DNA from: Candidatus Omnitrophota bacterium
Lineage (GTDB): Bacteria; Omnitrophota; Omnitrophia; Omnitrophales; Aquincolibacteriaceae
Length of the DNA: 64,000 bases
NCBI GenBank assembly: GCA_022711115.1
Contig: JAKLFP010000001.1
Span: 389,183-453,182 of the forward strand
Reading direction: 5' to 3'
The notes below the pieces were generated by a model. That model searched no databases, had not been told where the DNA came from, and saw only the letters and a list, made by a program, of their open reading frames with translations. The translations under genes and the position numbers were made by a program. Of this stretch, positions 1 through 43,064 are shown piece after piece; the first letter of the stretch is position 1; every line of letters starts with the position of its first letter.

Positions 1-1157
1 ATCGGCGTTTCCCCAGGGGAATCAACCATGAGACCCATAGCAGGTTTTATGCCGGCTTTCACAGTATTGTTTATTATTTCCTGCACGGACTTTAGCTCAA
101 AACCTTTATTCATTTTTTTAATCACGGATTGAGCGCCGCTTTCCACGCCATAGCTTAGGCAAGTACATCCGGATTTTTTTATTTTTTGCAACAACTCCAA
201 AGATAGATATTTTTCGGGACGGGCTTGTGAGAACCATTGAACATCCGCTTTTTCATTGATCAATAAATCACATGTTTCCGTCAATTGCTTTTCTGAAATC
301 GCCAGTGTGGAATCGGCTTTAAAGAATCTTGAAACGCCATAAGTTTTTTTCTGGTGTATAAATTCATGGCAAATGCTTTGCGGGGATCGCATTCTTGGTC
401 TCCCCCATAATTTGCTTTCATAACAAAAGGCGCATTGATGGGTACATCCTCTTAACCAGGAGATAGTAAGACTGATATAGTCGCGCCCCAGGGTATTTTT
501 ATAATCGTCAATAAAATCGGAAAAATCAGGATAGGGAAGAGAGTCTAGATCTTTTATAAATTCTCTGGGCCCGCCATCAATAATTTCTCCGTTTCTCATA
601 AAAAGCATTCCTGGACACGCCTGGATCTGGTCCGTTTTCTCCAAATTGTTCACTATATCCAGTAAAGTCATTTCTCCTTCACCGACAACGACGATGTCCA
701 CAAGTTGGGATTCTAGAGACGCCCTTGCACGCTCTTGATAACATTGGGGGCCACCGAATATGATGCGGATATTTTTGTTCTTTTCTTTGATTTTTTTAGA
801 AAGATAAAGTGCCATTTGCTCTGTGGAATACGAAATATAGAACCCTATGACTTTGGCTTCTGATTTCAGAATCTTATCTACCCATCCTTCTGTTAAATAA
901 TTCATCCTGGGGATATTTTTTTGAAGAAATTTGCTCTGATTTTCAAGAATACCACGATATTTTTCATACCATTGTTCTTGATCCTTTTTTTTAGCATCCA
1001 TATACGTTTGAATATTCAAATCCATCACAGAGACCTCTTTTCCGTTCTTTTTGAGAAAAGCCGAAAGAGAGGCTAACCCTAAAGGAAGAATACCTTCCGG
1101 TTGCTTGTGATTATTAAATAAATTAACCCATGGTGGGAAAATCAGTAGAGTTTTCAC
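1..1157 (-). CDS. B12-binding domain radical SAM protein (N-terminal part; gene continues beyond window start). Probable GTG start at 1157
   Basis: Manual minus-strand translation gives VKTLLIFPPWVNLFNNHKQPEGILPLGLASLSAFLKKNGKEVSVMD... (B12-binding domain N-terminus), later ...WLRGCTHQCAFC (CX3CX2C radical SAM cluster motif). Not in ORF track because there is no stop in the window. Confidence 0.6.
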   Translation of the reverse strand, partial: MKTLLIFPPWVNLFNNHKQPEGILPLGLASLSAFLKKNGKEVSVMDLNIQTYMDAKKKDQEQWYEKYRGILENQSKFLQKNIPRMNYLTEGWVDKILKSEAKVIGFYISYSTEQMALYLSKKIKEKNKNIRIIFGGPQCYQERARASLESQLVDIVVVGEGEMTLLDIVNNLEKTDQIQACPGMLFMRNGEIIDGGPREFIKDLDSLPYPDFSDFIDDYKNTLGRDYISLTISWLRGCTHQCAFCYESKLWGRPRMRSPQSICHEFIHQKKTYGVSRFFKADSTLAISEKQLTETCDLLINEKADVQWFSQARPEKYLSLELLQKIKKSGCTCLSYGVESGAQSVIKKMNKGFELKSVQEIINNTVKAGIKPAMGLMVDSPGETP

Positions 1158-1232: not shown

Positions 1233-2324
1233 TCAAACCTCTCCATATTGACTCGTTTTTTCCAAGTTATAATGGTTCACGAGATATTCACTGAGCCTGT
1301 TGGCTATGATCTCATGCCCTTTTTTATTATAGTGAGGATCAATTTCAAAAGTAATCCCATGGCTTTTCCCTAAAACACCAGAAAGATCCAAATAATCTAT
1401 GTTTTCACGACTTAAAAACGCTTGCAACCACGGAATGGGGCCCTGATCAATATTGACAATTAAGAGTTGCATTTTTCTCTTTTGAAGTTGATTCTTTAAA
1501 TTTTTGAAATTCTTTTCAGCCTCTTCCATAACCATTTTCTTTTGCGCAGAAGTTCTTACCCTATACCCATGCTTACTGCCTTCGGACTCACCTTGTTTCA
1601 TAATATGATTCCAAAGTTCTCGCTCTTTTTTAGCCATAGAATGACGTATCAGAAGGATATTACAATTAACTTTCAGCCAGGAGTAAAGATAGCTAATTCC
1701 CAAAACATGGTTAAATTTTGAATATATGCTTCGCGTGAAAGAATTTATAAAATTATATGATACAATGTTTTCATCGACAATAAATGGTGAGTTTTCCATT
1801 GTTTTATAAATCGCTCTATCTAAATCAACCGCGATAATAGAACAAATAACCAGATCCGGTTTTAGAGAAAAACCATAATTTTCTAACCACAAGAACATCT
1901 GATGAATCCCATATCCGGGAACTCCGGCGTTAATGGAATAAATGCCTTTGACCTTTTTTTCCACCAAATCGGAAAATCGGCTTTCCACAGGAACTCCTAC
2001 TCCAAAAGTTTGGGAGTCGCCTAAAAATATTATTTTGAATTTATCTGTATCGGAAATTTCTTTTTCTCGCAGCCCTAAACTGTTAGTTGTGTAAATAATC
2101 TCATATTCGGAAGTGAAAGCATTTCTGCTGGCACTCGGTAATAATTTATATTGCAAGACGGGGTCTCGCTGATGTAAATGGGGGGTATGGTCAAAAGAGA
2201 AATTCCGATAAACCTCTATTTTTTTATGCGTTAAAAAGAAAAATATACGGGTACAGCCTTCGGCCAGAAGAAAAGTGCATAAAATATTAACGATACAAAC
2301 TAAAATTATTTTGGAGTATTTCAT
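1233..2324 (-). CDS. membrane-anchored SGNH/GDSL hydrolase-family protein (paralog 1 of 4)
   Basis: N-terminal TM helix; GDSQTFGVGV block (GDSx motif); C-terminal DPHYNKKGHEII block (DxxH). Paralogous to 13320-14522, 26102-27190 and 52885-53766. Confidence 0.6.
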   Translation of the reverse strand: MKYSKIILVCIVNILCTFLLAEGCTRIFFFLTHKKIEVYRNFSFDHTPHLHQRDPVLQYKLLPSASRNAFTSEYEIIYTTNSLGLREKEISDTDKFKIIFLGDSQTFGVGVPVESRFSDLVEKKVKGIYSINAGVPGYGIHQMFLWLENYGFSLKPDLVICSIIAVDLDRAIYKTMENSPFIVDENIVSYNFINSFTRSIYSKFNHVLGISYLYSWLKVNCNILLIRHSMAKKERELWNHIMKQGESEGSKHGYRVRTSAQKKMVMEEAEKNFKNLKNQLQKRKMQLLIVNIDQGPIPWLQAFLSRENIDYLDLSGVLGKSHGITFEIDPHYNKKGHEIIANRLSEYLVNHYNLEKTSQYGEV

Positions 2325-2413: not shown

Positions 2414-3603
2414 TTAAACGGGCGGGGTTTGTTCCCGTGTGGCTTCGATATAAAAAACGCCTATCTTTAGCCCTCCCCATAACGCTCCCAGAACATAGGC
2501 CCAGTTAAGAAGATAGCGAAGTAACGTATAGGCAATCCAGCGGCTTTTTTTTGAAGAAATCCAGCTTCGGAAAGTCAGTCTTCCACAAAAAAACAACCAT
2601 ACCAGAAACCACCCTAGAGCAAAGAACATGAGCGCATTATAAGCTTTAAAAAATAAGGAACATACTATGGCTAAAAATAAGAGATGAAGCATGTGGAATG
2701 GTGTCAAAAATATCAGCGCATAAAAAGGGAGGGGAAAACCCAAAAGAGTAGAAAATTGTACGGAAGACCATCCCATGCCTTTGTGCGTTGGCAAAAATAT
2801 CTTGATTGATTTGGAAGTGTGCTTTTTAAAAATATAAGGATGATAATAGCCATATCGAAACCATTGCTTGAGCAAGGCCCCTAGAGTTGTCCTGTGTTTA
2901 TGATGAATGAGAGCTTTCGGCTCAAAAAACAATTCCCATTTTGTTTTCGCCAACCGAATGCCCCATTCCACATCTTCTCCAGTTTGGTACTGCCCATCAA
3001 ATAATCCTACTTCATGAAGCGCTTCTCTCCGAATGGCTAAATTAGCCGTAGCAAATATGGGCTGGATCATTACAGAATCCGTTTTGGGTAGGTAGCCTCG
3101 CTCATAACCTTTGGTGAACAAAATATTCGTGATCATTGTGAATGATTTTCCTTTGAGCTGGATCCTACACGCATGACCGCGTCCGCAATGCAGTAATCCT
3201 CCACCAGCGTTCCTTTCACGCGACAGGCTAGGATTTCCCCTCCGACCATACCAATGGCTGGGTCTCTTAAAAAAGGTAACTCCAGATGATGCAACCATTT
3301 TTTATCCGCAACGCAGTCGTCATCTGTAAAAACGACAATATCCCCTGTCGCATTCAAGATACCAGTGTTTCTAGCTACAGGAATTCCTTTTTTATTTTCA
3401 AATATATATTTAATCGGAAGTTCTTCTTCGAAATGTTTGATGACTTCTCTTGTATGATCTGAGGAACCATTATCAACAACAACCACTTCGTCCGGGAACC
3501 GGACTTGTTGGACAAGAGATGACAGAGCGTCCTCTAGCATGGTCGCTCTATTAAAGGTCACTATGATAACTGAAATTTTTAATTTTTTTTGATCAATTGT
3601 CAT
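2414..3603 (-). pseudogene. family-2 glycosyltransferase with C-terminal TM domain, split by a frameshift into ORFs 3133..3603 and 2414..3298 (pseudogene or sequencing error)
   Basis: 3133..3603 encodes the GT2 N-terminus (ISVIIVTFNR...VVVVDNGSSDHT...FTDDDC). 2414..3298 continues the GT2 fold in another frame (FDGQYQTGEDVEWGIRLAKTKWELFFEPKALIHHKH) followed by TM helices. The two ORFs overlap by 166 nt. Confidence 0.5.
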
Positions 3604-3610
3604 ATTCCAC

Positions 3611-5284
3611 TCAACTATACAATATTTTCAATGTTTTTAAAGTGGATAAAAAATACGTTTCGGTGTCCGATGATTCACCATTGAGGTCTTTTCTATATTC
3701 TTCATGAAAGGTCTTCAACCAAGGCATTTCTGGAAAACTCGATTCAGGATACCCTTGGTAGACTTGGCTGCTGGACAATGGAACAAAAATTCTTTTCTTT
3801 GCCAGCGAGTCTTCAACAAGCTTTAATCGCAATGCTTGCCAGAAAAAAAGCTGAAATTGAATATTCGACAAACGGACAATCGTGGGCTCGGCGAGGATGT
3901 TCAGAATCATTCTCTTGTCTTCCTCCAGCGATCCTAAAAAGTCTTTCAAAAAATGATTCACTAAAATGCTCTGGCTTGTTTGGCATTGTAAAGGCCCTCC
4001 TAAAATTGACGCGTAAGGTGTGCTAACGTACAAAAAAATAAGCGGCATCAGGTTTGGTGAAAAAAGCGCTGACCGCATCAGCGGAGGTTCCTGTTTACTG
4101 AGCGATACCGCGCCGTACGAAGTGATACCATATAAGGACAGCCGTTGTGGAGCTTCATTCTTTGCCATGACTTTATTAAGTTCATCGATCATTTCGAAAG
4201 GAATATTGTTTTTACTTTTAATAAACAGGCCTATATTCGACTCATTGATGCAAACAAGATCTAGAGGGGATATAAAAATAGATTCAATATCCTCTTGATA
4301 TTTTTCATGAATAATCTTAACGATGGAGTCTAATTTTTTCTTATTTTCATGCGAAATAATTATATCGGCCGATTCAAAATCCAGGCGAAGGTTGTCAGGA
4401 CTCCACTCATTACCATCGTCGTAGTCCGCTATCGCGCTTAGAGCTTCGAGGGTTTTGGTGAGTGCCGTCATATAGAATTCATAACTACTGGAAACAAAAC
4501 AAGAATCATATGTTTGGAAGCCGTTTTTTTTAAACGCTAGCAACCTTTCGATATGAATTTTATTTCTTTCATCAAATTCCGGCTGAATGCCTTTTAGGGC
4601 GTCACCTCTGTCAAGCCAGTCCTCATGGTTCTTTGCCGACATAAGTGACCGGCTAACATCCGCATTGACTTTATAGCAGACATAATTTTGCATGCGCTTA
4701 TTCTTGTGGTTTTTTTTAAGGATAAAATGATCTATAAAAAGCGAATGGACAAAAGCGAGGTGGCCTAGGAGCAACTCTTTCCTTTGAGCCCCTTTTAATT
4801 CCGGGTATTGGCTAAAAATATCTTTACCATATAAAAGCTTGCCGTTTTTTTTAGTTTCATTAAAGAGTTTGAATTTGGCATAAAGATGCTTCAGGTAGAT
4901 ATCGCTTTTGTACCGATCGTGATAGATCTTTTCGATTTCCGCTTCAGTAAAGAGACCTCTTTCATCATATTTTATCAAAGGAATAAACCTGCAGAGGCTG
5001 CGGTATGTTTTTTCAACAATTGGTTTATCGTCCGGACCATTGCCAACAATGACAATGAGATCAATGTCGCTTAACCCGTAAAAGCATTCTCCTGTTACGA
5101 ATCCGCCGGTCAGGTAGATCGCTGCTACTTCCTTTTGTTTTTTAAGAATTGTGACGGTCATTCGCAACAAAAAACCGTAACACTGCTTGTAAACCCAAGT
5201 CCACGGCCAATAGTTCGTATGGATAATAAAATTTTGTATCAATCGCTTCAGCATAGAGAGGTTATTTATTTTGTGGCAACACAA
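3611..5284 (-). CDS. large nucleotidyltransferase-fold (Pol-beta/MNT superfamily) protein, unknown function
   Basis: LTGGFVTGECFYGLSDIDLIVIV matches hG[GS]x9-13DhDh of minimal nucleotidyltransferases; 557 aa; paralog at 7324-8871. Confidence 0.5.
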   Translation of the reverse strand: MCCHKINNLSMLKRLIQNFIIHTNYWPWTWVYKQCYGFLLRMTVTILKKQKEVAAIYLTGGFVTGECFYGLSDIDLIVIVGNGPDDKPIVEKTYRSLCRFIPLIKYDERGLFTEAEIEKIYHDRYKSDIYLKHLYAKFKLFNETKKNGKLLYGKDIFSQYPELKGAQRKELLLGHLAFVHSLFIDHFILKKNHKNKRMQNYVCYKVNADVSRSLMSAKNHEDWLDRGDALKGIQPEFDERNKIHIERLLAFKKNGFQTYDSCFVSSSYEFYMTALTKTLEALSAIADYDDGNEWSPDNLRLDFESADIIISHENKKKLDSIVKIIHEKYQEDIESIFISPLDLVCINESNIGLFIKSKNNIPFEMIDELNKVMAKNEAPQRLSLYGITSYGAVSLSKQEPPLMRSALFSPNLMPLIFLYVSTPYASILGGPLQCQTSQSILVNHFLKDFLGSLEEDKRMILNILAEPTIVRLSNIQFQLFFWQALRLKLVEDSLAKKRIFVPLSSSQVYQGYPESSFPEMPWLKTFHEEYRKDLNGESSDTETYFLSTLKTLKILYS

Positions 5285-6057
5285 ATAAAAAATTTACTTT
5301 CTTCTATATTGTTTTCCGAAATGACCAGGTCCTCGAGAGAAGCAACCTTAGGGAAAGGAAGGTTCATGATCTTTTTGGATAAATATTGACGAATGCTATT
5401 GGGGATAAGATTCTTGATCTTATAAGGATTTTCTCTCAAAAATATATTGTTTTTCGTAGCATCTTTGATGGCCCGGGGATAAGCCCCGATTTTTTCTTCG
5501 TAATGATCGGATCGCCTTTGTCCGTACATCTTTTGAATACAAAAATGACGGCCCACCAAAGCCTGAAATTCATCAAGACAATATTCTTTTACATGAAATT
5601 GGTGGGCGTCTCCTTTTAAAAGACCATACACCTTGTTGTTAGGCGTTGAAATCATAATCGTTCCTTGCGGGCATAAAACCCTTTTCATTTCCGCTAACAT
5701 GGAATCTGGATTAGTGATGTGTTCTATGGTTTCAAAAGAAACGATGGTGTGGAAAGCAGCTTCGGAAAATTTAAGACGGGCAGCATCCATAACTTGAAAC
5801 GATAGATTTTCGGAACGATAGTTTTTCTTACAGTAATCAATAGCCTCTTCCGATAGATCCACTCCAACAACACTAGCAGCGCTGTTTTTTGCCAGCAATT
5901 GAGACCCATACCCGCTGCCGCAGGCGACATCAAGGACATTTTTATTTTGCAAGAACTCTTTAGCGAAAAGATATCGCTGCATGTGCTCCCAATAAATTTC
6001 ATCCCTATTATTGGATAGGGTATATCGCTCAGAAGTTTTGTTCATCAATTTAACCAT
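5266..6057 (-). CDS. class I SAM-dependent methyltransferase
   Basis: VLDVACGSGYGSQLLA (motif I GxGxG) and downstream acidic motif. Confidence 0.7.
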   Translation of the reverse strand: MVKLMNKTSERYTLSNNRDEIYWEHMQRYLFAKEFLQNKNVLDVACGSGYGSQLLAKNSAASVVGVDLSEEAIDYCKKNYRSENLSFQVMDAARLKFSEAAFHTIVSFETIEHITNPDSMLAEMKRVLCPQGTIMISTPNNKVYGLLKGDAHQFHVKEYCLDEFQALVGRHFCIQKMYGQRRSDHYEEKIGAYPRAIKDATKNNIFLRENPYKIKNLIPNSIRQYLSKKIMNLPFPKVASLEDLVISENNIEESKFFICVATK

Positions 6058-6571
6058 GGATGTTTTTAAAAAAGCTAAATGAAAACCAAAATTAACTTAT
6101 GAATGGGACTTGGATTTGAATGCCTTTTTATAAGTTATACCGCTTTCCTTATTTGACCGTCAATCTCTTTGATTTTGATGTTCGTCCCCGGTCTTCCTTT
6201 GTTTTTGCTCTCTATTTCGATGTTGCGAAACTTCATAATGTAAAAATTCCGTGCTGCAAGTTAACACACTATAAGATGGAGAATAACAGTTTATTTTTTA
6301 TGTTTCTTTATAAAACAAAAAAACACCTCTAAATAACTTTATCAATTTCGGTGCTTTTCATTTCGCTTAGGATTTGCTAGATTGCTTTTTGGAAACAAAT
6401 CCATTTTGCTCTTAAAAAACTTCACAAAAAAAGATACACGATGAACCGAAAAAAATCCTTATTTAACCATGGCGGTCACGCATAAAAGGGGTTAATTTTT
6501 ATCGGCCTATTATTAAGAGGCTGGAAACTTTTTATCGCTATAAAACATTTGAGATATTCAACGCGATTTAC

Positions 6572-7294
6572 ATGGAAACCATTACCTCTTGTAATAGACG
6601 TTGTTATTATTGCCCAAATTCAAAATTCGACAGAGGGTTGATGAAGAATACGAAAAGAATGGACACGGGATTATTCCATAAGATCATTGATGAGCTAGCG
6701 GCGTTGGGGTGGAGCGGAGAAATTGCTCCGAATTTCTATGGTGAACCTTTATTAGATGATCGCATGGTGGAACTAGTGAAATATGCGCGCAACAAAATAA
6801 ACGGTTCTATGATCACTCTTTTTACAAATGGCGATTTTTTGACCGTAGAATTATACCTGAGATTGGTGAAAGCGGGCGTTAGTGCGTTTTGTATAACGGA
6901 ACATCCGGATGGAACCCCGCCGTTTATTAACGAAATATTAGAGTATCGAAAAGCACACGGAGACGATCATGTTAAGGTGGAGTATAAAAAATTAACCATG
7001 ATTTATAGCCGCGAGGGAGATGTCCCCATTGATGAGGTGGCTCCTAAGGATTGTGCTAACGCCGCATACAGAAAAATCGGCATTGATTGGGATGGGAACG
7101 TCGTGTTTTGCTGTAACGATTATTTCGTTACCGTTAAACTTGGTAATGTAAGAAAGGAAAGATTAATCGATGTGTGGAGAAAACCTTATTACAAAAAACT
7201 AAGGAAAAAACTCTACAGAGGCCAATCAAAGCTTGAGATATGCAGAAAGTGTAAATACGGAACAGTCGCAAAAAAAACACTCTCCCTACCTTAG
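6572..7294 (+). CDS. small radical SAM protein with SPASM/twitch-like C-terminal Cys cluster (paralog A)
   Basis: CNRRCYYC (CX3CX2C) at the N-terminus; C-terminal ...DGNVVFCCNDY...GNV...LIDVW...CRKCKYG. Paralogs at 29396-30229 and the C-terminus of 43065-44966. Confidence 0.65.
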   Translation: METITSCNRRCYYCPNSKFDRGLMKNTKRMDTGLFHKIIDELAALGWSGEIAPNFYGEPLLDDRMVELVKYARNKINGSMITLFTNGDFLTVELYLRLVKAGVSAFCITEHPDGTPPFINEILEYRKAHGDDHVKVEYKKLTMIYSREGDVPIDEVAPKDCANAAYRKIGIDWDGNVVFCCNDYFVTVKLGNVRKERLIDVWRKPYYKKLRKKLYRGQSKLEICRKCKYGTVAKKTLSLP

Positions 7295-7323
7295 GCTGCC
7301 ATTGCAAACATGGAATGTGATTG

Positions 7324-8871
7324 TTAACCCGTAACAAAAGGTTCTAGTTTATCAACCAAATAACGCTGGCAGAGGTAATAATCCCGAGAGAATTCGTCAG
7401 ATTCTTTTAAGTTGCTCGCCTTTTGAAAAACATCTCTTTCTAAAAGCTGAACAATTTTGGATGTCTCAGGCTCCCCTGCAAAGCATTGCTGGTATATTTC
7501 CTTCCCATTATCCATAGAGGGAATGATATCTGTTTCAAACAAAACCCTGTTCACAACAAGATGATTCAAGATTCTTTTTTGGTGTTTAAACAAGTCAATA
7601 CCTCTAAGGCTAAAGCCTTTTTTCATTTCTGACATGGCGTTGAGCATATATAGTTTTCGTATTAACTCTTTATGAGGTTGTATGGCACTCATCAATTGCC
7701 ATGGAGCTTGTCCGACGAGCGTCTGAGCTGATTTTAAGTAAGCTTGATACCAAAAAGGATCGTGTGAGCCGAAAGCTTTGAGTGAATCCTGCATCCAAAA
7801 ATTGACACTTTCGGGATTGAAAGAATCATTGGTTGGGGTGAGGTAATTTTTTTTCGTGATCTGGAGTAATTTTTTGAGGTCTTCCAGGGTCGCTGTGTTT
7901 TTTGCTATAACCAAAAGCTGCGAGTTAAAACAGATAATAGCAGCTATGGCCCCAGCAACATCCCGGTTCAGATGATGCGCATATTCCAGTTGTTTGGGAG
8001 AAATCATTTGGATGTTGTTTTGACAAACAGAAGAAGGCCCTTCCGCATTGGGCATAGAAAAAAACTTCTCAGCCGCAGCGTTGATCCATTTGAATAATCG
8101 AACGCAGGCCTGAGAAATTTCTTCTTCCCCCTGTTTGGAGAAGAAATCGATGCTTTGAATTGATTCGCTTTTTTTACAAATCTCTTTGAGCAAGGGGTCA
8201 TCGACTCTTTCTATAATAAAAGTTTCGTTATTCCGAAAAATGTCATGCCCTTCTGCAACGAGATTCATGTCCGTAAGGATGTGGCAAATTTTAAAAGTGT
8301 TTTTATAGAAGTCCCGTAAACATTCTCGATGAAGTGAGTTGGCTTTTAGATAATCACACACTAAAAGGCGGTGAGCCCATAGGGCTCGAAAGAAAAGACC
8401 AGAAAGCGCGGTTCTTGGCAAAGGGCGCATGACGGAATCTAGGTTAACGGAGTCGCCCGCCACAAGGCGCCATGCGTTGGGGTTGATCAGGAAGAAATGA
8501 TTGCTGAGTTCCTTTACAAATTTTACATCCTGCTGTGAAAAAATGCGTTCAAGCTTGGGAATCTTAAAGAAAGCCGTAAGACGAGCGGTATCTCTAAAAA
8601 TGCGAGAAACGGCTTTGTATTCATTTTCTGGGGACAGGGGGCGAAGAAAAGCAAGCGCATCCATGTCGCTTGTACCAAAAAAATAATTACCTTTCGCCAT
8701 GCTACCGGTCACATATAAAGATTGTATCTCAGGGTATCTTCTTAAAAATTTAATGAAGAGCCAGAGTAAAACTTCCTGAAAATAGCTAAAAACGTGTTTG
8801 ATGATGGAAACTCTCTGAACACCGAGAAGGAAAATCTTAATCTGCCTGGATACTTTTGTTTGCTTTAGCAT
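7324..8871 (-). CDS. large nucleotidyltransferase-fold protein, unknown function (paralog of 3611-5284)
   Basis: YVTGSMAKGNYFFGTSDMDALAFL fits the GSx(n)DxD nucleotidyltransferase motif; 515 aa. Confidence 0.5.
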   Translation of the reverse strand: MLKQTKVSRQIKIFLLGVQRVSIIKHVFSYFQEVLLWLFIKFLRRYPEIQSLYVTGSMAKGNYFFGTSDMDALAFLRPLSPENEYKAVSRIFRDTARLTAFFKIPKLERIFSQQDVKFVKELSNHFFLINPNAWRLVAGDSVNLDSVMRPLPRTALSGLFFRALWAHRLLVCDYLKANSLHRECLRDFYKNTFKICHILTDMNLVAEGHDIFRNNETFIIERVDDPLLKEICKKSESIQSIDFFSKQGEEEISQACVRLFKWINAAAEKFFSMPNAEGPSSVCQNNIQMISPKQLEYAHHLNRDVAGAIAAIICFNSQLLVIAKNTATLEDLKKLLQITKKNYLTPTNDSFNPESVNFWMQDSLKAFGSHDPFWYQAYLKSAQTLVGQAPWQLMSAIQPHKELIRKLYMLNAMSEMKKGFSLRGIDLFKHQKRILNHLVVNRVLFETDIIPSMDNGKEIYQQCFAGEPETSKIVQLLERDVFQKASNLKESDEFSRDYYLCQRYLVDKLEPFVTG

Positions 8872-9857
8872 CGGTTTTTTGTTTTATCAGTAATGGTTGC
8901 GGCTTGATTTTGACAATGCAGTGCTTTTAGATAAAGCCCCAACCAAAAGCTTAAGATGAACAGCATCAGGGCCGGTGAAAAAAATAAAAAGCGAAGCAAC
9001 TTTTTGACCCTCATCGCGGTGCGAAGGAAATCGTAATATGTGACACCTACGGATCTTGGCATGTGCCAAAAAAAAATCATACCGGGATGCTTTAAGGCAT
9101 CGGTAAGTTGTTTTGAAATGATATTTGCTTTTTTGCTCGCCTCAAAGGTGTAGGCGCCGTAACGATATCGTTGATTGAGAAAATCCCAAAAGGATTTTTG
9201 TTCCCAGTGTTCGATCTTGAGCGAAGGAAGATAAAAAGTTGAGATTCCTTTTTTAGCCAAACGAAAAGCAATCTCGGCATCCTCTCCACCCTGGAGGGTT
9301 TCGCTGTACATCCCCACAGCAGAGAAAATGTTCTTGTCGAATATAGGCCCATTGACTGCGGAAATATTATTGCTTTTTATAACCTTATGGTCGGAATACT
9401 CTTCCTGAATACTGCGCCAGAGAGTCAATTCCCGATAAAGCTGTTGAATAATGCTTCCAAGGCCCTGGCCGCAAGAAATAAGATGCGAAGTAAGCACTTG
9501 GGCTTGGGGATGTGTAGTAAAAAATTCTTTTACTTGAGACAAGTAATCGGGCGACAAACAAAAATCGTCATCAATAAATACCAGAAAGCGGCCTCGAGAA
9601 TTCTTGATTCCCTTATTTCTTGCGGCGGCAACGCCTTGATGATCCTGGAAAATATAGGAAATAGGCAGCAATCCTTTAAAGGCATCGACATTTTTCCGGT
9701 TATCGCAGGAAGAGCCGTCATCCACAACAATAACTTCAAACATCTCTTTGCTGAAATCTTGCCTAGCTACGGCTTCTAGGCAGGCCCTTAGCGACCTAGG
9801 CCTTTCATAAGTCAGAATGATGACGGAAAAAAAGAGTTTAGAATGATCCGGTGACAT
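8865..9857 (-). CDS. family-2 glycosyltransferase with C-terminal TM segment
   Basis: FSVIILTYERP...FEVIVVDDGSS...FIDDDF; tandem paralog of 9812-10858. Confidence 0.7.
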   Translation of the reverse strand: MSPDHSKLFFSVIILTYERPRSLRACLEAVARQDFSKEMFEVIVVDDGSSCDNRKNVDAFKGLLPISYIFQDHQGVAAARNKGIKNSRGRFLVFIDDDFCLSPDYLSQVKEFFTTHPQAQVLTSHLISCGQGLGSIIQQLYRELTLWRSIQEEYSDHKVIKSNNISAVNGPIFDKNIFSAVGMYSETLQGGEDAEIAFRLAKKGISTFYLPSLKIEHWEQKSFWDFLNQRYRYGAYTFEASKKANIISKQLTDALKHPGMIFFWHMPRSVGVTYYDFLRTAMRVKKLLRFLFFSPALMLFILSFWLGLYLKALHCQNQAATITDKTKNRC

Positions 9858-10858
9858 CCAAAGTTCTCCCTTCTATTGGACCACCTTGCTTTCAATGCTT
9901 CGATGGCTTCCGGAACGAAAGGCTCTTTCATAAAATCCGAGCAAAAAGAAACAGCAAAAAACCAAAATAAACGGGAAGAAAAAAGAAGTTGTTTGCTTTG
10001 ATTGGTTTTTTTAGCCGTGCTGAATAATTTTCGACACATGGAAAAGAGGGATAAAGGAAATCGGTAAAAGCAAACGGCGAGAAAGGAGAAGCAAGCAGTT
10101 CCGAGACAATTAAATTCTTTTTTCGTTTCTCCTTCAACTTCAAACGCATGCTGTCCATATCGATAGCGTTGATCGAGAAAGCCCCAAAAGGACTTTTTTT
10201 CCCAATGCAAAATGTAAAAATCGGACACGAAATAAACGGGAATGTTGTTTCGCGATAACCGAAAAGTCAACTCCGTATCTTCCCCTCCCACTATCTTTTC
10301 ATTGAACATCCCGGTTTTAGCAAACACATCCCGTTTAAATACTGCGGCCCTTGAGGCGGGAAGGTGGTTGCTCTTGATAATTCTTCCGGTAAGTTCTTCG
10401 TCGGCAATCCTTCCCCAGAGAGCTAGTTGCGTGTAAAGTTGTTGGATGATTCTTCCCAGACCATGCCCGCAGGATAAGATGTTAAATGTCAGAACGCTGG
10501 CGTCGAGATAACGATCAAAGAAATCATGGGCTGTTTTTAAATAGCTTTTGGGAAGGGTATAGTCATCGGCTATGAATACAAGGAATTGGCCCCGGGAATT
10601 TCGGATCCCTTGGTTGCGTGCCGCTGAAATCCCTTGGTGATCCTGATAAACATAGGTAATCGACAAAGGTTCTTTAAACGAGTCAACGACAGGGCGAACG
10701 GCGCATTTTGACCCATCGTCAACAACGATAACCTCGAACTTTGATTTTTCAAAATCTTGTTCCGCAATGGACTGAAGGCAACAGCGCAGGGGATCGGGTC
10801 TATTGTAAGTCAGGACGATCAAGGAAAATAAAGGGGCAGAAGAATCGACTTTTAGCAT
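9812..10858 (-). CDS. family-2 glycosyltransferase (tandem duplicate of 8865-9857)
   Basis: FSLIVLTYNRP...FEVIVVDDGSK...FIADDY; overall collinear similarity to the upstream neighbour. Confidence 0.7.
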   Translation of the reverse strand: MLKVDSSAPLFSLIVLTYNRPDPLRCCLQSIAEQDFEKSKFEVIVVDDGSKCAVRPVVDSFKEPLSITYVYQDHQGISAARNQGIRNSRGQFLVFIADDYTLPKSYLKTAHDFFDRYLDASVLTFNILSCGHGLGRIIQQLYTQLALWGRIADEELTGRIIKSNHLPASRAAVFKRDVFAKTGMFNEKIVGGEDTELTFRLSRNNIPVYFVSDFYILHWEKKSFWGFLDQRYRYGQHAFEVEGETKKEFNCLGTACFSFLAVCFYRFPLSLFSMCRKLFSTAKKTNQSKQLLFSSRLFWFFAVSFCSDFMKEPFVPEAIEALKARWSNRRENFGCHRIILNSFFPSSF

Positions 10859-11009
10859 AGCTCTCTTTTCTGTAAAACGTTTTAATGAATTTTGGGGTTA
10901 TGCATTACAAAACAAATCTGAATCTCAGTCCAAACAAATCTTTCGAGAGTTAATTTTAAAGAATATTTAACAAATATCAATCGCCAGGGGATTTACGGCA
11001 AAAATCTAA

Positions 11010-11948
11010 TCACTCGGCTCTTTCCTCCGCATGGCAAACTGCCTCATGCTGAGCCATCCTCCGGTTTTCACGAATTTTGATGATCCTGCGTTGTTTATTC
11101 TTTTCCCAGTAATATCCCCACTTCAAGGCTAAAATCCTCATTTCTAAAATAATTTTTATGATCAGCGCTTTTTTAAAAGAAAACACGCCTCGCATACTCT
11201 TAAGGCTATCATCATAGTTAAAACGAAAATAATTTCCCCATTTTTGGCGGAGCCAGTATCCTCCCCTCCCGTAATGAAAGAAACGTTTGGTGTCGGCAAG
11301 AATACCCGCTGAAGGTCGATGGATGAGGAGATTGTCGATAAAACCGATCTCGACATTTTCTTTTTCAAGACGTCGAAATAAATCTTCGTCCTCTCGAGTG
11401 ATGAGTTGTTCATCGAATTTCATTTCGAATTTTCCTAATCTTTTTTTATGGACCCCGAGATTCCCCGTCCCTATATACCGTGCTTTAAGTTTTTCCGAAA
11501 AATTATCGGAGGGAACAATGCGGACCTTATCGGCTATGCGTGAGTAATAGTGCGTTGCTTCCAGGAAAATGGATTGGTAATCGCAATAATGACAGCCGGC
11601 TTGGATAAATGCAAAACCGGGATTATTTGAAAATGCCCGAATGAATTTTGCGATCCAATCCGGGGGAGCGATCATGTCATCATCCGCAAAAAGAACGATC
11701 TCCCCTTCCGCAAGCGCGAATCCCCTGTTTCTCGCAGCGCTAGGCCCACGATTTTTTTGGTAGGCATATTTTATTTTTAAGGATGCTGAGAAATTTTCAA
11801 CAAACAGGCGGGTTTGATCCATGCTGCCATCATCAATGACAACGATTTCGTATTGTTCCTTGCTCACACTCTGTTTTTGCAAAGAATTGAGGAGGTCTTT
11901 GAGTTGTTGGCATCGGTTATAGGTGGGAATAACGACGGAAATATTCAT
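11010..11948 (-). CDS. family-2 glycosyltransferase
   Basis: ISVVIPTYNR...YEIVVIDDGSMDQT...FADDDM. Confidence 0.7.
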   Translation of the reverse strand: MNISVVIPTYNRCQQLKDLLNSLQKQSVSKEQYEIVVIDDGSMDQTRLFVENFSASLKIKYAYQKNRGPSAARNRGFALAEGEIVLFADDDMIAPPDWIAKFIRAFSNNPGFAFIQAGCHYCDYQSIFLEATHYYSRIADKVRIVPSDNFSEKLKARYIGTGNLGVHKKRLGKFEMKFDEQLITREDEDLFRRLEKENVEIGFIDNLLIHRPSAGILADTKRFFHYGRGGYWLRQKWGNYFRFNYDDSLKSMRGVFSFKKALIIKIILEMRILALKWGYYWEKNKQRRIIKIRENRRMAQHEAVCHAEERAE

Positions 11949-11959
11949 GAACGTTTGCC

Positions 11960-12964
11960 TTATATTTTTTGGGCCACGATAAGCTGGTCTTTTTGGTGGA
12001 TGGTCTTAAAGCCGCATTCTTTAAGAATTTGGCGCATTTCCCGATACGTGGGTTGCCAACCGCTTTGCCCTTTGCGACCGAGCACGGCAAGGGCTTGAAC
12101 AAGCGCCATGAAAGAACCTTTAAAATTGTCCTCAAGAAAAAATTCCCACACCAGCACTTTTCCTCGACGGGGTAGCGCCCGGTACACCTGTCTCAGGATC
12201 TTTTTTATGTTCGCTTCATTCCAGTCGTGTAGAACATTCGCGAGCAAGACAACGTCTGCCCCTTTCGGAAGGACATCAAAAAACGATCCTGACCATAAGC
12301 GAACCCGTCTTTGCAAATGCGCCTTTTGAATCTCTTTGAGCATAAAAGGATGAACTTCCGGAAGATCCACTAAAATGGCTTTAAGGTGCTTGTGCCTTTT
12401 TAGAATGCTGATGGACCAGCCTGCAGAGGCGCAGCCCAAATCCATTAACGCGATATGCTTTTTGAAGTTATAGATTCTGGCAAGATCCTCCCCCCAAAAA
12501 ACTCTCCGGGCATGAAGCCAGCCGGAATAGAAAGCGGGATCTATTTTTCTTGCCCCTTGTTCCCGCTTAAGCCGGTGCCAGATCTGTTCCGGAGGTCTTT
12601 TTAAATAACGGTTTAACCGGGAAGGAGATTTCCTCAAATCCGAAAGATGCCGAAGCCATGCTAATGAGGACTGATGCTTGCATAAAAGATATCGCCGGCT
12701 TATCGGGGTAAGTTGAATTCGATTTTGAGAATATTTTATTAATTCCAATCGAGCAAGGTATTGCATAAAGACTCGCGTCGACGGGGCCGGCATTTTCAGT
12801 TTTCGGCTTATTTGGAGCAAGGTCAGCTTTGGATGCTCTCGAAACAAGGAAAAAAAGCCCGTTTTAATGGCAAGTTGCAAAAAAGAGTCTGTGAGACCGC
12901 CTAGGGCATAAGACACTAGGCTCTCAGGATAATCAAAATTAGCTGATCTTATGGAATGTTTCAT
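11960..12964 (-). CDS. SAM-dependent O-methyltransferase-like protein (class I MTase with N-terminal dimerisation or winged-helix region)
   Basis: LMDLGCASAGWSISIL (SAM motif I) followed by LVDLPEV, typical of the plant/bacterial O-MTase family. Confidence 0.55.
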   Translation of the reverse strand: MKHSIRSANFDYPESLVSYALGGLTDSFLQLAIKTGFFSLFREHPKLTLLQISRKLKMPAPSTRVFMQYLARLELIKYSQNRIQLTPISRRYLLCKHQSSLAWLRHLSDLRKSPSRLNRYLKRPPEQIWHRLKREQGARKIDPAFYSGWLHARRVFWGEDLARIYNFKKHIALMDLGCASAGWSISILKRHKHLKAILVDLPEVHPFMLKEIQKAHLQRRVRLWSGSFFDVLPKGADVVLLANVLHDWNEANIKKILRQVYRALPRRGKVLVWEFFLEDNFKGSFMALVQALAVLGRKGQSGWQPTYREMRQILKECGFKTIHQKDQLIVAQKI

Positions 12965-13319
12965 AGATGGCTGCAGTCATTAAACGCAATGTTTGCGGGA
13001 TATAATACCCGTAAAGAACTTCCCTGAAAAGGAAAGAAAGAAGTCCCGACGTTTTTCAGCATGCGGCCGAAAGTGAGTCTACCCGTGTTTATCGAGAAAA
13101 AGAAGGCCCATTGAACTGTTCGGAAGTGAAGGCGGGGCCCGGCCAGCACCACTCCTCATGAGATCCGCCTGGGAGATATGAATGAGCGAATTTTCGACGC
13201 CGGCTGAAGGGATTTAGAGGAATCGTTATACTAAAATCTAAAGATTTTTTTATTTACTTGGAAAGAATGCGATGACCACGGCTAAAATGAGCCTTTCTCG
13301 CTGCGCAAAGTTAACTCCG

Positions 13320-14522
13320 TTATGTTTTTGTTGCCGTGACCGTTTCATCATGAAACGGTTTCACTTTATTTAAAACGGATCTGCAAAAAGCAAGAACCGG
13401 TTCTTTGATGGTTTCCGCATAGACGCTATTTCCAATCTCGTTAAAGTGCCCTTCGGGAAAATAGATATCTTTAATTTGGTAACCCTTTTTTTCCATCAGG
13501 GACCTTATCTTGTCCGTGGGATCAAAAAAATAAACCCCTTGTTGTTGCGGGAAAGTTTCAGCTAACAGGGATTTTTTAAAATGTTCGCAAACACCGGGAC
13601 GTTTTTCGTTTTTGGCCATCGCTTTTGAATTCGGCGTCCAGACAATCAACAGCGGTATATGATTTTCCCGGCAAAAAAGGGTCAGGCGACGCACATGCGC
13701 CAAACTGACGCGAGCGGCATCTTGAGGAGTCCTGGTGCTTGCAGGGTATAGGCTACCGGGTGTTTCAGCTGTCACATTTGGGAAACAAAACTTTTTGATC
13801 AAGACAAACAAGTGAGAATGCTGATTGAACCATGGATAAGGCGTACGCGTAAGAAGATATCTCTTAAAAGGAGTAAAGACTTTTTCATCTTTTAATATGA
13901 CTTGGCCGTCCCTGACGGCAAACGAGCAAGCTCGATAGTTAGGATTTTGATTAATATTATCAGCGATATCGTTTGAATTCATGAAATAGATGACGGCATC
14001 AACATGAAACATTTTTTGAAAACGTTTTAAAGCCTTGAAGACATGTCCCGTGGAATAAGTGCTGACCCCCCCATTTAAAAGCTGGATATCTCCTGTCTCC
14101 TTCAAGACTTGGGCTTTAAGGATGCCGTAAAAAGAATTATTGATTTCGACGCCCCAGCCGAATAAAAAGGAGTCCCCTAATGCCAGTATTTTTTTTACAT
14201 GAGCTGCGGGGTTTACGCTCTGATCCATCCTTAAGCCATATTCGTTAGTATCAACCTGGAATGAATAATATTCTTTCGTTAGAACGTCATCATACTTCTG
14301 GTTCGGGCCGTTCACTTGCCCCAAATCTTCATGCGGCATTAAATAGGGCCTCACAAGGGATTGGGGAGAAAACTTTCTAACGATCCATTCCCCCAAGAGA
14401 ATGGACAGGGTGAGAGATAACAGCAGTAAAAAAGAATTCGATGCAAAAACCAGCCCTCGAGATTTCTTTTCAAGAAAATTCATGTTAAACATGATGCGGT
14501 GATTCAAAAAATTTAGAAGCAA
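13320..14522 (-). CDS. membrane-anchored SGNH/GDSL hydrolase-family protein (paralog 2)
   Basis: N-terminal TM; LGDSFLFGWGV; C-terminal EGHFNEIGN. Confidence 0.6.
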   Translation of the reverse strand: MLLNFLNHRIMFNMNFLEKKSRGLVFASNSFLLLLSLTLSILLGEWIVRKFSPQSLVRPYLMPHEDLGQVNGPNQKYDDVLTKEYYSFQVDTNEYGLRMDQSVNPAAHVKKILALGDSFLFGWGVEINNSFYGILKAQVLKETGDIQLLNGGVSTYSTGHVFKALKRFQKMFHVDAVIYFMNSNDIADNINQNPNYRACSFAVRDGQVILKDEKVFTPFKRYLLTRTPYPWFNQHSHLFVLIKKFCFPNVTAETPGSLYPASTRTPQDAARVSLAHVRRLTLFCRENHIPLLIVWTPNSKAMAKNEKRPGVCEHFKKSLLAETFPQQQGVYFFDPTDKIRSLMEKKGYQIKDIYFPEGHFNEIGNSVYAETIKEPVLAFCRSVLNKVKPFHDETVTATKT

Positions 14523-14720
14523 AAAACATGCCGGGGGGAGTCTCCATGAAAGTTATCTCCGCTTTTTTAGGTAATAATAGAGCGCCTGAACAAAGAAGGT
14601 TTTTCATCTTTTTTGATCTTTATCAAAGCGCCTTCAATAGACTGCTTTTAATTTTTTCCCGCTTCATATAATATACGGCGTGTATATTTTCTTTTGATAA
14701 AGAGCGGGCAATAAAACTTT

Positions 14721-16508
14721 TTGAGTAAAAAAACACTTTATTCCACTATGAAGATATCGGCAGAAAAAGAAAAAAAGCTGTCTCCTTTATTTCTCATTAT
14801 TCTTCTTGGAATAGGGCTCTATGCGATGATTCTCAATGCCCCGTTTTGTTTTGATGACAACGCAAAGATCGTCAGCAATTCGGCTTTAAAAGATACGGCG
14901 ACTTTCGAGCAAATATGGAAAATCCCGTATGCAAAAACAAACTTTCTTACCTTCGTCACTTTTGCCCTTAATTACCGTTGGGGGGGCATGAACCCCTTCG
15001 GATTCCATCTTGTGAATATCGTCTTGCATCTTCTCAGCGTCTTTTTAAGTTACCGGCTGGTGCTTATTTTCTTTTCCTGTCCCGCCTTCAGCTTATCCCC
15101 CTTGAGCGCATGGAAAAAATCTTTTGCTCTTATCGCGGCGCTCATCTTCCTATGTCACCCCCTTCAAACCCAGTCCGTCACGTATGTTTGGGCGCGTTCG
15201 GAAATATTATCTGCCATCTTTTGTTTTTTGTCCTTGCTGTTTTATATGAACGGGCGGCTAAAAAATAGGAAGCCGTTGCTTTTTCTTTCTTTCTTTTTGT
15301 TTTTGATCGGCATCTTCGCAAGAGGAAATATGATCATTTTCCCGCTTCTTGTTTTTTTAATCGAGATCACATTTTTCAGATCAACACCTCTGAAAATCAC
15401 TCGTCTATCTTCAAAAGGATGGCTGTTTCTATTGGGTTTAGGCCTATCGGCGATTCTTGTCGGAGTCTTTTTTTCGCAACTGGTGAACTTTTTTAACATC
15501 TCTTACCTTTTCAAGAACAGTTATATGCCCCGCACCCATTACCTCTTAACACAGTTTAGTGTTATCGTGCAGTACATCAAACTTTGTATTATCCCGCTGG
15601 GGCAAAATCTCGATTATGATTTCCCTTTTTCAAACTCTCTGTTCGAATTCCGGACTTTCGGTTCTCTTATGATATTGCTTTCTATTTTGGTTTCGGCCGT
15701 GCTCTGTTTTAAAAAGCATAGATTGATATCCTTTGGAATTTTCTGGTTTTTTATATGCCTCCTGCCGGTTTCCAGCATTATTCCCCTTTCAACCGTAATC
15801 TCTGAAAGTCGCGTCTACTTGCCGCTATTTGGCTTTTCTGTGCTTGTGACGGCTTTCATGTTTTCTTTCATCGCGGAAAAAAAGAAGGTGGTCCGGATTG
15901 CTTTTGTCGTCATCATGGGCTTAAGCGCCCTGACGATTGCCAGAAATTCTGTCTGGCGCTCATCGATCGCCATTATGGAAGACACTGTGAGAAAATCGCC
16001 TTTAAGCGGCCGGGCGCAGGCTAATTTGGGGGTGGCTTACAGCATGGCCGGACTTTATGACAAGGCCCTTGACAGTTATCGTACAGCCTTTGAGTTGGGT
16101 AGTAAAAGAGGCATGGATCGAAAATACTTGGCCCAAATTCTTATTAATTTAAGCTCTATTTACGGGTTGAAGGGCGATTATGAACGTGAAATTCACTATT
16201 GCCAGCAGGCGATTACTTATAATTCCAAAAATCCTCAAGCCTATAGCAATCTAGGACATGCGTATGCGTTAACCGGAGATTATGCCAAGGCGATAACATA
16301 CGGGCGTAAAGCCGTCGAAATTTCCCCGACTTTTGTTGAAGGATTGACAAACCTCGGTGTCGTTTACGGAAGAATGGGAAAGTACCGCGAAGCGGCCGAA
16401 CAGTTTGAGCGCGCGTTAAAACTTGACCGTGAGAATGAAAAGGCAAAACAGAATTTGCTTCTGGCGCAGCAATTGCTTAAAAATTCAAACGAACCTGCCC
16501 CTTTTTAA
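14721..16508 (+). CDS. TMTC/PMT-like GT-C membrane glycosyltransferase (DUF1736-type) with C-terminal TPR repeats
   Basis: Multi-TM N-terminal region with APFCFDDNAKIV and HLVNIVLHLL motifs shared with 39908-41716; C-terminal TPR repeats (AYSNLGHAYALTGDYAKAI...). Confidence 0.55.
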   Translation: MSKKTLYSTMKISAEKEKKLSPLFLIILLGIGLYAMILNAPFCFDDNAKIVSNSALKDTATFEQIWKIPYAKTNFLTFVTFALNYRWGGMNPFGFHLVNIVLHLLSVFLSYRLVLIFFSCPAFSLSPLSAWKKSFALIAALIFLCHPLQTQSVTYVWARSEILSAIFCFLSLLFYMNGRLKNRKPLLFLSFFLFLIGIFARGNMIIFPLLVFLIEITFFRSTPLKITRLSSKGWLFLLGLGLSAILVGVFFSQLVNFFNISYLFKNSYMPRTHYLLTQFSVIVQYIKLCIIPLGQNLDYDFPFSNSLFEFRTFGSLMILLSILVSAVLCFKKHRLISFGIFWFFICLLPVSSIIPLSTVISESRVYLPLFGFSVLVTAFMFSFIAEKKKVVRIAFVVIMGLSALTIARNSVWRSSIAIMEDTVRKSPLSGRAQANLGVAYSMAGLYDKALDSYRTAFELGSKRGMDRKYLAQILINLSSIYGLKGDYEREIHYCQQAITYNSKNPQAYSNLGHAYALTGDYAKAITYGRKAVEISPTFVEGLTNLGVVYGRMGKYREAAEQFERALKLDRENEKAKQNLLLAQQLLKNSNEPAPF

Positions 16509-16595
16509 AAAAGCGGCCATTCCTGCTAACAAAAGACTTCCCTCCGAAAACCAACTCAAATAAAAAGGATTTTGGGATAAGGTGGGTTGAGAGCT

Positions 16596-16650
16596 GCGGA
16601 TTGTTCCTATCGGCAATCCGCGGGGCGGAGGGGAATCGTATTTTTTATTT
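16596..16650. terminator. possible bidirectional terminator hairpin (GCGGATTG...CAATCCGC) followed by a T-rich run
   Basis: Perfect 8-bp inverted repeat between convergent genes 14721-16508 (+) and 16649-17110 (-). Confidence 0.35.
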
Positions 16651-17110: not shown

Positions 17111-17127
17111 GGAAGTTAAATGGTTTT

Positions 17128-25458: not shown

Positions 25459-25643
25459 CGTTTTTGGCCGGAACAGCCCTCTTGTTATCTTTTCGATGAT
25501 GTTGAAGCCAGTTTCCGCAATGAGGTGAAAACTGTATCTCTATTATAACAGGAAAGTTGTTTTCCTCATTATCTTTAGAATGAGGCCATTATGATGAACT
25601 TACTGGCGCGTTATTTGCCATGTTCTTCGAATTTATTTAAGAG

Positions 25644-25717
25644 CGCGCCCGGCAGGAGTCGAACCTGCAACCTTCTGATCCGTAGTCAGATGCTCTATCC
25701 AATTGAGCTACGGGCGC
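25644..25717 (-). tRNA. tRNA-Arg (anticodon ACG)
   Basis: Cloverleaf read manually: acceptor GCGCCCG/CGGGCGC, anticodon stem TCTGA/TCAGA, loop CTACGGA, T-arm GGTTCGACTCC; CCA not encoded. Confidence 0.85.
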
Positions 25718-43048: not shown

Positions 43049-43064
43049 CCGGGTTTTTCTTCCT

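Follow-up and report, generated by a model that had tools for sequence, protein, structure and literature searches.

LicD, fukutin and FKRP are nucleotidyltransferase (NTase)-fold enzymes with a DxD metal site, act inside glycan pathways beside glycosyltransferases (GTs), and install phosphodiester-linked substituents from CDP-X. The aminoglycoside and lincosamide O-nucleotidyltransferases (ANT enzymes), among them AadA/ANT(3'')(9), AAD(9), ANT(4')/KNTase and LinB, combine a polymerase beta (Pol-beta) NTase sheet carrying a G[GS]...DxD motif with a helical bundle, in a single module of about 250-290 amino acids (aa); ANT(4') forms its sites between subunits. GlnE-type adenylyltransferases hold two NTase-plus-helical modules in one polypeptide, both active, and target a protein tyrosine. 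In a biosynthetic cluster with an ABC exporter, an ANT-like NTase is paired with a P-loop protein: PsmK, which resembles HPr kinase (HprK), phosphorylates a lasso peptide, and PsmN, an NTP_transf_5 protein, needs its DxD for the addition of hexose to the phosphate (PMC6993621); activity of PsmN in vitro is still lacking (PMC11912497). Here we analyse a stretch of 64,000 nucleotides from a Candidatus Omnitrophota bacterium (assembly GCA_022711115.1, contig JAKLFP010000001.1, positions 389,183 to 453,182; the window), which encodes two long NTase-fold proteins, NTase A (547 aa) and NTase B (515 aa).

In A and B a known kind of enzyme takes a new architectural form within a conserved, uncharacterised glycoconjugate cluster, and the two belong to an undescribed and very rare family of about 500-550 residues, whose other members range from 499 to 567 aa. 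They share with the ANT enzymes, which act on sugar-like hydroxyls and are the top fold matches for both models, the Pol-beta sheet, the helical bundle and the G[GS]...DxD motif. However they carry a second, degenerate module and an extra N-terminal helix, and they lie in glycan operons rather than resistance cassettes; sequence and profile searches of the PDB matched no ANT chain. GlnE-type enzymes are also built of two modules, but the second module of A and B lacks the catalytic motif, and neither protein has a GlnE Pfam match. The LicD-type enzymes share the setting among GTs, whereas their motif context is different and the fold matches of A and B point to ANT and minimal nucleotidyltransferase (MNT) enzymes; no LicD (PF04991) match was found in A, B or the superfamily members scanned. 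With PsmN and PsmK the locus has in common an ANT-like NTase fold, an HprK-like P-loop partner and a biosynthetic cluster with an ABC exporter. It differs from that system, whose substrate is a peptide serine, in that it has no lasso cyclase or precursor and has GTs and the exporter pair Wzm/Wzt instead, and PF14907 (NTP_transf_5) gives no match at E <= 1 in 12 superfamily members. PsmK/PsmN is the only experimental precedent for the pairing of an HprK-like kinase with an ANT-like NTase. Our reading, held tentatively and at somewhat less than an even chance, is that A and B are active transferases of ANT-like type, which work beside the neighbouring GTs in modifying a glycan intermediate.

NTase A lies at 3611-5254 on the minus strand. 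A longer ORF runs from the first TTG (3611-5284, 557 aa); this start at 5284 would overlap the methyltransferase gene, and the ATG at 5254, as in public assembly calls, is the likely start. The protein matches Pfam NTP_transf_2 (PF01909) at 7e-7 with 30 bits against a gathering cut-off of 21, and its nucleotide/metal-binding motif GGFVTGECFYGLSDIDL (5057-5107, minus strand) holds D63 and D65. An earlier reading made from the sequence alone had quoted the motif correctly and miscounted its spacing, which is GGx3Gx6SDIDL and not x5. NTase B (7324-8871, minus strand) matches the same Pfam family at 9.7e-5 (23.1 bits, cut-off 21), and at its start the gene shares 7 nt with the end of the GT2 gene upstream. 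Translation bears out the motif quoted for it as well, in GSMAKGNYFFGTSDMDA (8656-8706, minus strand; D69, D71). The loop and acidic motif thus read GGFVTG...SDIDL in A and GSMAKG...SDMDA in B.

Full-length homologues at 36-41% identity, found in six clusters among 5.8 billion protein clusters, establish that the A gene is real. Within GTDB species genomes the A family occurs in only one other Omnitrophota metagenome-assembled genome (MAG) and one Planctomycetales MAG; a cluster member from a Candidatus Omnitrophota MAG, HOW58726.1, carries the NCBI name 'nucleotidyltransferase domain-containing protein'. For B, a word-independent HMMER scan of 1.84 billion representatives gave 11 matches, one of which is a fragment of B itself. 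The sole full-length relative among them, P0012 (24% identity, E 3.8e-39), marks B as a real gene too. Metagenomes scanned with the B family as seed yielded nothing, and a homologue search with the superfamily alignment returned only B itself.

Structures predicted with AlphaFold2 (AF2) give both proteins a Pol-beta/ANT-like fold. The B model is good (predicted local distance difference test, pLDDT, 78; predicted template modelling score, pTM, 0.73) and the A model is of medium quality (pLDDT 65, pTM 0.63). Foldseek places AAD(9)/AadA first among PDB matches to A (E 4e-3, probability about 1) and HalB first among those to B, which also include ANT(3'')(9), ANT(4'), LinB and AadA; matches to the two models have probabilities of 0.97-1.0, E-values of 4e-3 to 1e-1, about 270 aligned columns and target-normalised template modelling (TM) scores of 0.37-0.52. 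Each model begins with an N-terminal helix, continues with an a-b-b-a-b-a-b NTase sheet that bears the motif and with five helices to about residue 275, then enters a second a-b-b-a-b-a-b unit that lacks both the glycine loop and the acidic residues, and ends with five more helices. Hydrophobic peaks in A and B that might be taken for transmembrane segments coincide with predicted core helices and strands, and a transmembrane reading was rejected. The sequence-only reading had left about 400 aa of each protein unassigned. This holds for Pfam, NCBIfam and PADLOC, since scans of A and B against NCBIfam and PADLOC gave no family, and when 12 superfamily members were scanned against Pfam at E <= 1, nothing but NTP_transf_2/Polbeta recurred (NTP_transf_2 is matched by 10 of the 12). 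PDB searches with single sequences and with the superfamily profile returned only the minimal NTases 1ylq and 2rff and nothing for the C-terminal 400 aa. However the models fill this part with a helical ANT-type domain and a second, degenerate ANT-like module.

By AF2 secondary structure, the second alpha/beta module of A covers residues ~290-400 (4055-4387, minus strand) without a GS/DxD motif; S301, N304, S329, E338, E354, N360, Q370 and S384 are its family-invariant polar residues. The counterpart in B (residues ~292-393; 7693-7998, minus strand) has no acidic motif and is confidently modelled, with pLDDT mostly 74-91 and one block at 61; two of its strands read IAAIICF and QLLVIA. The order of elements in the N- and C-terminal modules agrees better than shuffled orders do, at z = 4.2 in B (none of 500 shuffles reaches the observed value) and z = 2.4 in A. 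A tandem duplication within each protein is thus something we infer from the models, since no repeat is detectable at the level of sequence.

HalB of the Hailong system heads the fold matches of B, and resistance ANT enzymes are the other top matches. This leaves some room for an explanation in which A and B are defence or signalling proteins (HalB-like, or like the CD-NTases of the anti-phage system CBASS), resistance ANT enzymes or MNT antitoxins, and in which their place in a glycan locus is accidental. HalB does share the NTase plus helical domain, but it is a small protein of 216 aa that makes an oligodeoxyadenylate product and has the effector HalA, and A and B have no such partner or defence context. 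MNT-HEPN systems pair a small MNT of about 100-140 aa with HEPN, whereas A and B exceed 500 aa; there is no HEPN Pfam match in A, B or the superfamily, no small partner gene, and the Rx4-6H motif was looked for by eye. The earlier remark that no CBASS-type effector is nearby agrees with PADLOC, which gave 0 families for A and B, and with a neighbourhood made up of GTs, methyltransferases and exporters; neither gene adjoins an effector, a HEPN or an ion-channel partner. Searches with tblastn matched A to no plasmid and B to no phage, both proteins are twice the size of such enzymes, and they stay linked to GTs and exporters even in distant loci. We regard a role in defence or resistance as very improbable.

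The presumed catalytic aspartates are conserved. Among the 17 superfamily sequences used for residue conservation, the carboxylates of SDxD (SD[IMLV]D) are invariant (17/17); in the A family G60, L61, S62, D63, I64 and D65 are all invariant, and G66, S68, D69 and D71 of B are nearly so in the alignment of the wider set (A2). The NTase assignment made from the motif therefore stands, given the predicted Pol-beta fold and the conserved aspartates. A third acidic residue, which the sequence-only reading had asked for, has a candidate in each protein: E98 of A (codon 4961-4963, minus strand), in KYDERGL on strand beta-3 and invariant in the A family, which could be a third carboxylate or a catalytic base, and E108 of B (codon 8548-8550, minus strand), in PKLERIF. 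We take this beta-3 glutamate to resemble E87 of AadA. It is not conserved across the superfamily, where 11 of 17 members have E in this column and three have H; the position was taken from alignments and not from superposed coordinates. In the profile alignment, the strand with E98/E108 falls on 'FEFHIL', a strand of the minimal NTase AF0614 (PDB 1ylq).

This variable third position, the clear loss of the motif from the second module and a fusion of A to half a GT (below), which would suit a structural role, speak for a reading of A and B as inactive scaffolds or regulators, that is, pseudo-enzymes that organise a GT/exporter complex or nucleotide-binding sensors. However the SDxD and the glycine/serine loop are invariant among members at 14-40% identity, as expected for retained catalysis, and we consider an inactive role quite improbable.

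A and B had been called paralogous. This is weakly supported: their N-terminal ~80 residues are detectably similar (BLASTP, 26% identity over 69 residues; hhalign profile comparison, 93% probability over 80 N-terminal columns), while the rest gives no direct signal and overall identity in a MAFFT alignment is about 14%. P0014, P0017, P0019 and P0021, each about 500 residues long, make up a third group, which links weakly to both C-terminal halves, at E 8.5e-5 to B and 2e-3 to A. From end to end, the predicted secondary structure elements of A and B follow one another in a similar order (z = 5.5 against shuffled orders; the input alignment of the B model contained four A-family sequences). On the strength of the weak direct signal, the linking group and the like order of elements, we regard the two proteins as distantly related within one superfamily rather than as recent or close paralogues.

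The two genes bracket a methyltransferase and a radical S-adenosylmethionine (SAM) gene, as the sequence-only reading had it and as ORFs and Pfam matches agree. The class I SAM methyltransferase (263 aa; 5266-6057; Pfam Methyltransf_31/11/25, 1e-22 to 1e-24) is on the minus strand with A and B. It lies directly upstream of A across an 11-nt gap and forms one operon with it; orthologues adjoin A in two public loci, at 55% (L005) and 59% (L016) identity. The radical SAM gene (240 aa; 6572-7294) is on the plus strand, convergent with B. It encodes a CNRRCYYC motif and a partial SPASM/twitch domain (Pfam Radical_SAM and SPASM), and its Radical_SAM match spans model positions 2-107 of 166. Its homology to a 367-aa radical SAM/SPASM protein of locus L009 begins 17 codons upstream of the ATG, where there is no start codon, and about 85 core residues are missing compared with its homologues; the gene may be decaying, to judge from its sequence. 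It is not a conserved partner of either NTase. The intergenic stretch 6058-6571 is an AT-rich spacer of 514 bp with a 70-aa ORF (6120-6332), a public gene call without annotation. A scan of 5900-7500 for promoters and terminators found nothing above shuffled background.

The glycan setting proposed for the locus is borne out by its neighbours: GT2 enzymes, an O-methyltransferase, SGNH/GDSL-like proteins, and Wzm/Wzt just past the window start. In order of transcription the cluster runs from an SGNH-like protein through the O-methyltransferase (11960-12964, minus strand, Pfam), three GT2 genes (11010-11948, 9812-10858 and 8865-9857, all minus strand, Pfam) and B to the short radical SAM gene on the opposite strand. 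It goes on with the methyltransferase, A, the N-terminal and C-terminal halves of a GT2 (GT2N and GT2C), a second SGNH/GDSL-like protein (363 aa; 1233-2324, minus strand; N-terminal membrane anchor, weak Pfam Lipase_GDSL_2 match) and a B12-binding radical SAM methylase. Only the 5' part of this 477-aa methylase is inside the window (1-1157, minus strand; NCBIfam and the L001/L022 gene tables), and it is 52-53% identical to the B12-binding radical SAM proteins of L005, L008 and L009. The genes past the window start are taken from public loci L001 and L022: Wzm, Wzt, a 341-aa HprK-like protein that resembles ScmC, a GT2, a PRK07208-type FAD protein, two proteins without annotated function and a GmhB-like phosphatase. 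The top NCBIfam matches of the exporter are galactan and teichoic-acid Wzm/Wzt. Packing is tight, with a 7-nt overlap between B and the upstream GT2, the 11-nt gap between the methyltransferase and A, and a 7-nt gap between A and GT2N. Two of the GT2 genes, at 8865-9857 and 9812-10858 (minus strand), are tandem paralogues with a 46-nt overlap of their reading frames; the upstream gene of the pair is called as 348 or 328 aa in public assemblies of the same organism (L001 vs L002), which suggests strain variation or an alternative end.

Context was counted over the 12 distinct superfamily loci in which it is usable. A GT (GT2, GT4 or GT9) lies within three genes of the NTase in 11 of them, radical SAM genes occur in nine, ScmC-like genes in seven and Wzm/Wzt in six. 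A and B belong to two different conserved gene modules. The B-type module reads O-methyltransferase, GT2, GT2, NTase, Wzm, Wzt, ScmC-like, and is collinear, at 30-44% identity, with the locus of P0019 (L019), which has a 508-aa NTase; for the genes upstream of B (8865-12964) the identity is 37-44%. The A-type module consists of a methyltransferase or radical SAM gene, A, GT2N and GT2C, plus a gene for a B12-binding radical SAM protein, and recurs in L005, L008, L009/L010 and L016. In the window it looks as if the A-type module had been inserted between B and the exporter. At cluster level, full-size SPASM and B12-binding radical SAM genes are among the conserved partners. It is the split GT2 and the HprK-like P-loop protein that are informative as partners of A and B; the short radical SAM gene next to them is not.

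The split GT2 follows A directly. GT2N (156 aa; 3133-3603, minus strand; Pfam Glycos_transf_2, 6e-29) is the donor-binding half with the DxD and starts 7 nt after A. GT2C (240 aa; 2414-3136, minus strand; Pfam Glyco_trans_2_3) is the acceptor/membrane half; it overlaps GT2N by 4 nt, is also called in public assemblies and has a hydrophobic C-terminus (KD19 = 2.2). Counterparts that are likewise separate genes occur in L005 (11643-12820), L008 (10558-11675) and L009 (9354-10573), 68% identical to GT2N and 54-61% identical to GT2C; L016 (1997-4839) is described below. Because the two halves recur at 54-68% identity between loci, the split is a conserved feature and no artefact of assembly. A, GT2N and GT2C are kept together in 6 of 6 A loci. 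A GT-A fold divided over two polypeptides is unusual. The L016 locus, from an Omnitrophota MAG, goes further: A is joined in frame to GT2N through the linker FEFDSSELEADPLKKK in a 701-aa ORF, which allows the Rosetta-stone argument that A works physically with the split GT2.

The fusion would also fit a different role for A, namely in donor activation: the HprK-like protein would phosphorylate an unusual building block, the long NTase would condense it with a nucleoside triphosphate into a nucleoside diphosphate (NDP) donor, and A would hand this donor to the GT2 half. The block could be, for example, a sugar or polyol methylated by the radical SAM/B12 enzymes, and the Pol-beta fold would then provide a route to a nucleotide sugar. 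It is indeed the DxD donor half, not the acceptor half, to which A is fused or directly before which it lies; the kinase-like partner is conserved in seven loci; and the cluster of ~28 kb is without genes for a canonical sugar-1-phosphate nucleotidyltransferase, dehydratase or epimerase. However such a role is without precedent in this fold: to our knowledge no Pol-beta/ANT-fold enzyme makes NDP-sugars, and the characterised relatives use hydroxyl nucleophiles. The kinase assignment consists of a Walker-A-like 'PSGGGKTT' and weak HprK matches (6e-5, 7e-3), and housekeeping UDP-sugars could feed the GT2 enzymes. Donor activation is, in our judgement, unlikely. More doubtful still is a fuller version in which the long NTase, the HprK-like P-loop protein and the two-piece GT2 would form a self-contained machine for donor activation and transfer. 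Equally doubtful is the course of events that it would imply, with a sugar or polyol tailored by radical SAM/B12 enzymes, phosphorylated, esterified to an NDP by a Pol-beta/ANT fold and channelled into the donor half of the GT2. If true, nucleotide-activated glycosyl donors would here arise by a biochemical route not known before, one without the canonical sugar-1-phosphate nucleotidyltransferase fold, and confined to Omnitrophota and Planctomycetota-type bacteria.

The ScmC-like partner is a protein of ~340 aa with the pattern 'HRIHALG...LPSGGGKTT...SEDSP', an HPr-kinase-like P-loop; its matches to ScmC and to HprK-related kinase B are weak, and 6e-5 and 7e-3 are its values for HprK. Its genes lie at 14195-15220 in L022 (just past the window start), 2349-3431 in L005, 10577-11584 in L009, 9590-10609 in L013, 11495-12511 in L019 and 10001-11023 in L023. 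The last of these loci was found by a metagenome scan seeded with a three-sequence ScmC-like alignment, a five-sequence version being too divergent as a seed; here the gene of a long NTase (499 aa) overlaps one for a GT9 and points away from the divergent ScmC-like gene. The L019 locus adjoins, on the opposite strand (12541-17527), a SynChlorMet-like cassette of radical SAM, S24 peptidase, PqqD, radical SAM and a 646-aa radical SAM-ScmC fusion, and has an NTP_transf_5 (PF14907) gene at its other end. The cassette hints at a link between glycan-type clusters and peptide-maturation machinery. Literature searches on 'SynChlorMet' and on the combination of cluster components found no papers.

Such a link would be expected if the substrate were a ribosomal peptide or a protein, which the NTases would nucleotidylate or help to glycosylate, on the model of PsmN with PsmK or of GlnE-type AMPylators, so that the locus would be a glycosylated system akin to peptides that are ribosomally synthesised and modified post-translationally (RiPPs), instead of a polysaccharide pathway. 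The ScmC-like/HprK-like protein that accompanies the long NTases, the PqqD, S24 peptidase, radical SAM/ScmC and NTP_transf_5 genes around P0019, and the precedent of PsmK/PsmN all fit such a system; SPASM radical SAM enzymes usually mature peptides, and the top NCBIfam matches here are RiPP methylases. But no PqqD or precursor-like gene was seen in the window cluster or the A loci, and the exporters are of Wzm/Wzt type with galactan and teichoic-acid best matches. GT2, GT4 and GT9 genes dominate every locus, and a fusion of GT2 with radical SAM/SPASM domains elsewhere in the window ties SPASM enzymes to GTs in the same organism. A peptide or protein substrate is, on this evidence, improbable.

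The reading that we favour, of A and B as ANT-like transferases acting on a glycan intermediate, can be spelled out as a mechanism. Both proteins would act in the cytoplasm, inside a glycoconjugate pathway that depends on the ABC transporter Wzm/Wzt. The first module, with its Pol-beta NTase sheet (G[GS]...SDxD and a third carboxylate) and helical bundle, would be the active ANT-type module. The second, with the same order of elements, would have lost the catalytic motif, and the whole protein would probably be a fused pseudo-dimer with a single active site. The N-terminal module would bind an Mg-nucleoside triphosphate or NDP-X and move a nucleotidyl or phospho-linked group to a hydroxyl of a saccharide intermediate that the neighbouring GTs would build; the acceptor may instead be a phosphate installed on this intermediate by the kinase-like partner. 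The second module may bind the acceptor in the pseudo-dimer, much as ANT(4') forms its sites between subunits. A would act in a physical complex with the adjoining two-piece GT2, and B with the GT2 set of its own operon. The sequence-only reading had suggested that the proteins adenylylate a sugar or lipid acceptor; this is compatible with all the evidence and remains a reasonable inference, if unproven.

Several observations weigh against this mechanism. As to the fold, the Foldseek E-values are modest, the target-normalised TM scores are 0.4-0.5 and the A model reaches a pLDDT of just 65. An hhalign comparison of N-half and C-half in the A family gives no repeat signal, nor is there a direct hhalign signal between the middle and C-terminal parts of A and B. 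The third carboxylate is absent in P0012, the closest relative of B. The fusion in L016 is on a contig (JBAZGA010000044) with 1.3x coverage and could be a sequencing error at a stop codon. The PqqD, S24 peptidase and ScmC fusion genes of related loci mean that the substrate could be a peptide. Finally, no canonical sugar-1-phosphate nucleotidyltransferase, dehydratase or epimerase gene was recognised in the ~28-kb cluster. No genes for nucleotide-sugar synthesis are recognisable there, so that the case for a glycan is made by the GTs, by Wzm/Wzt, by the GmhB-like phosphatase and by the SGNH proteins.

A second Wzm/Wzt-type glycan cluster lies in the window at 41807-52462. It holds the 633-aa protein that joins GT2, radical SAM and SPASM domains (43065-44966, minus strand), together with GT2, GT4, a sulfotransferase and three proteins without annotated function, and is without a long NTase or a ScmC-like gene. 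Between the two clusters, an 1849-aa ORF (19909-25458, minus strand) has a single PASTA domain as its only Pfam match, in a stretch with a GC content of 0.54-0.57 compared with 0.38-0.45 in the glycan cluster, and a 1546-aa autotransporter (33172-37812, minus strand) has five PATR repeats and a C-terminal beta-barrel domain. The genes gyrB and gyrA (55391-60463, minus strand) and three tRNA genes (Arg-ACG, 25643-25717; Ser-GCT, 38296-38389; Ser-GGA, 53950-54040) show that the window is chromosomal.

If our reading is right, A and B represent a new architecture in the Pol-beta nucleotidyltransferase superfamily, an active ANT-like module with a dead copy of itself, and this double-module architecture is tied to glycoconjugate assembly in uncultured bacteria of the Planctomycetes-Verrucomicrobia-Chlamydiae (PVC) group and Omnitrophota. 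The same clusters hold three further oddities, namely the two-polypeptide GT2, the B12/SPASM radical SAM enzymes and the HprK-like kinase. Practical significance will be modest until the chemistry is known. With fewer than 20 sequences, a DxD open to mutation and a fusion partner, the family offers a defined target for the study of what NTase-fold enzymes other than LicD and FKRP do in glycan pathways. The cluster probably makes a surface glycan with unusual decorations. Omnitrophota are regarded as ultra-small cells that depend on a host, and with such a lifestyle surface chemistry is likely to matter.

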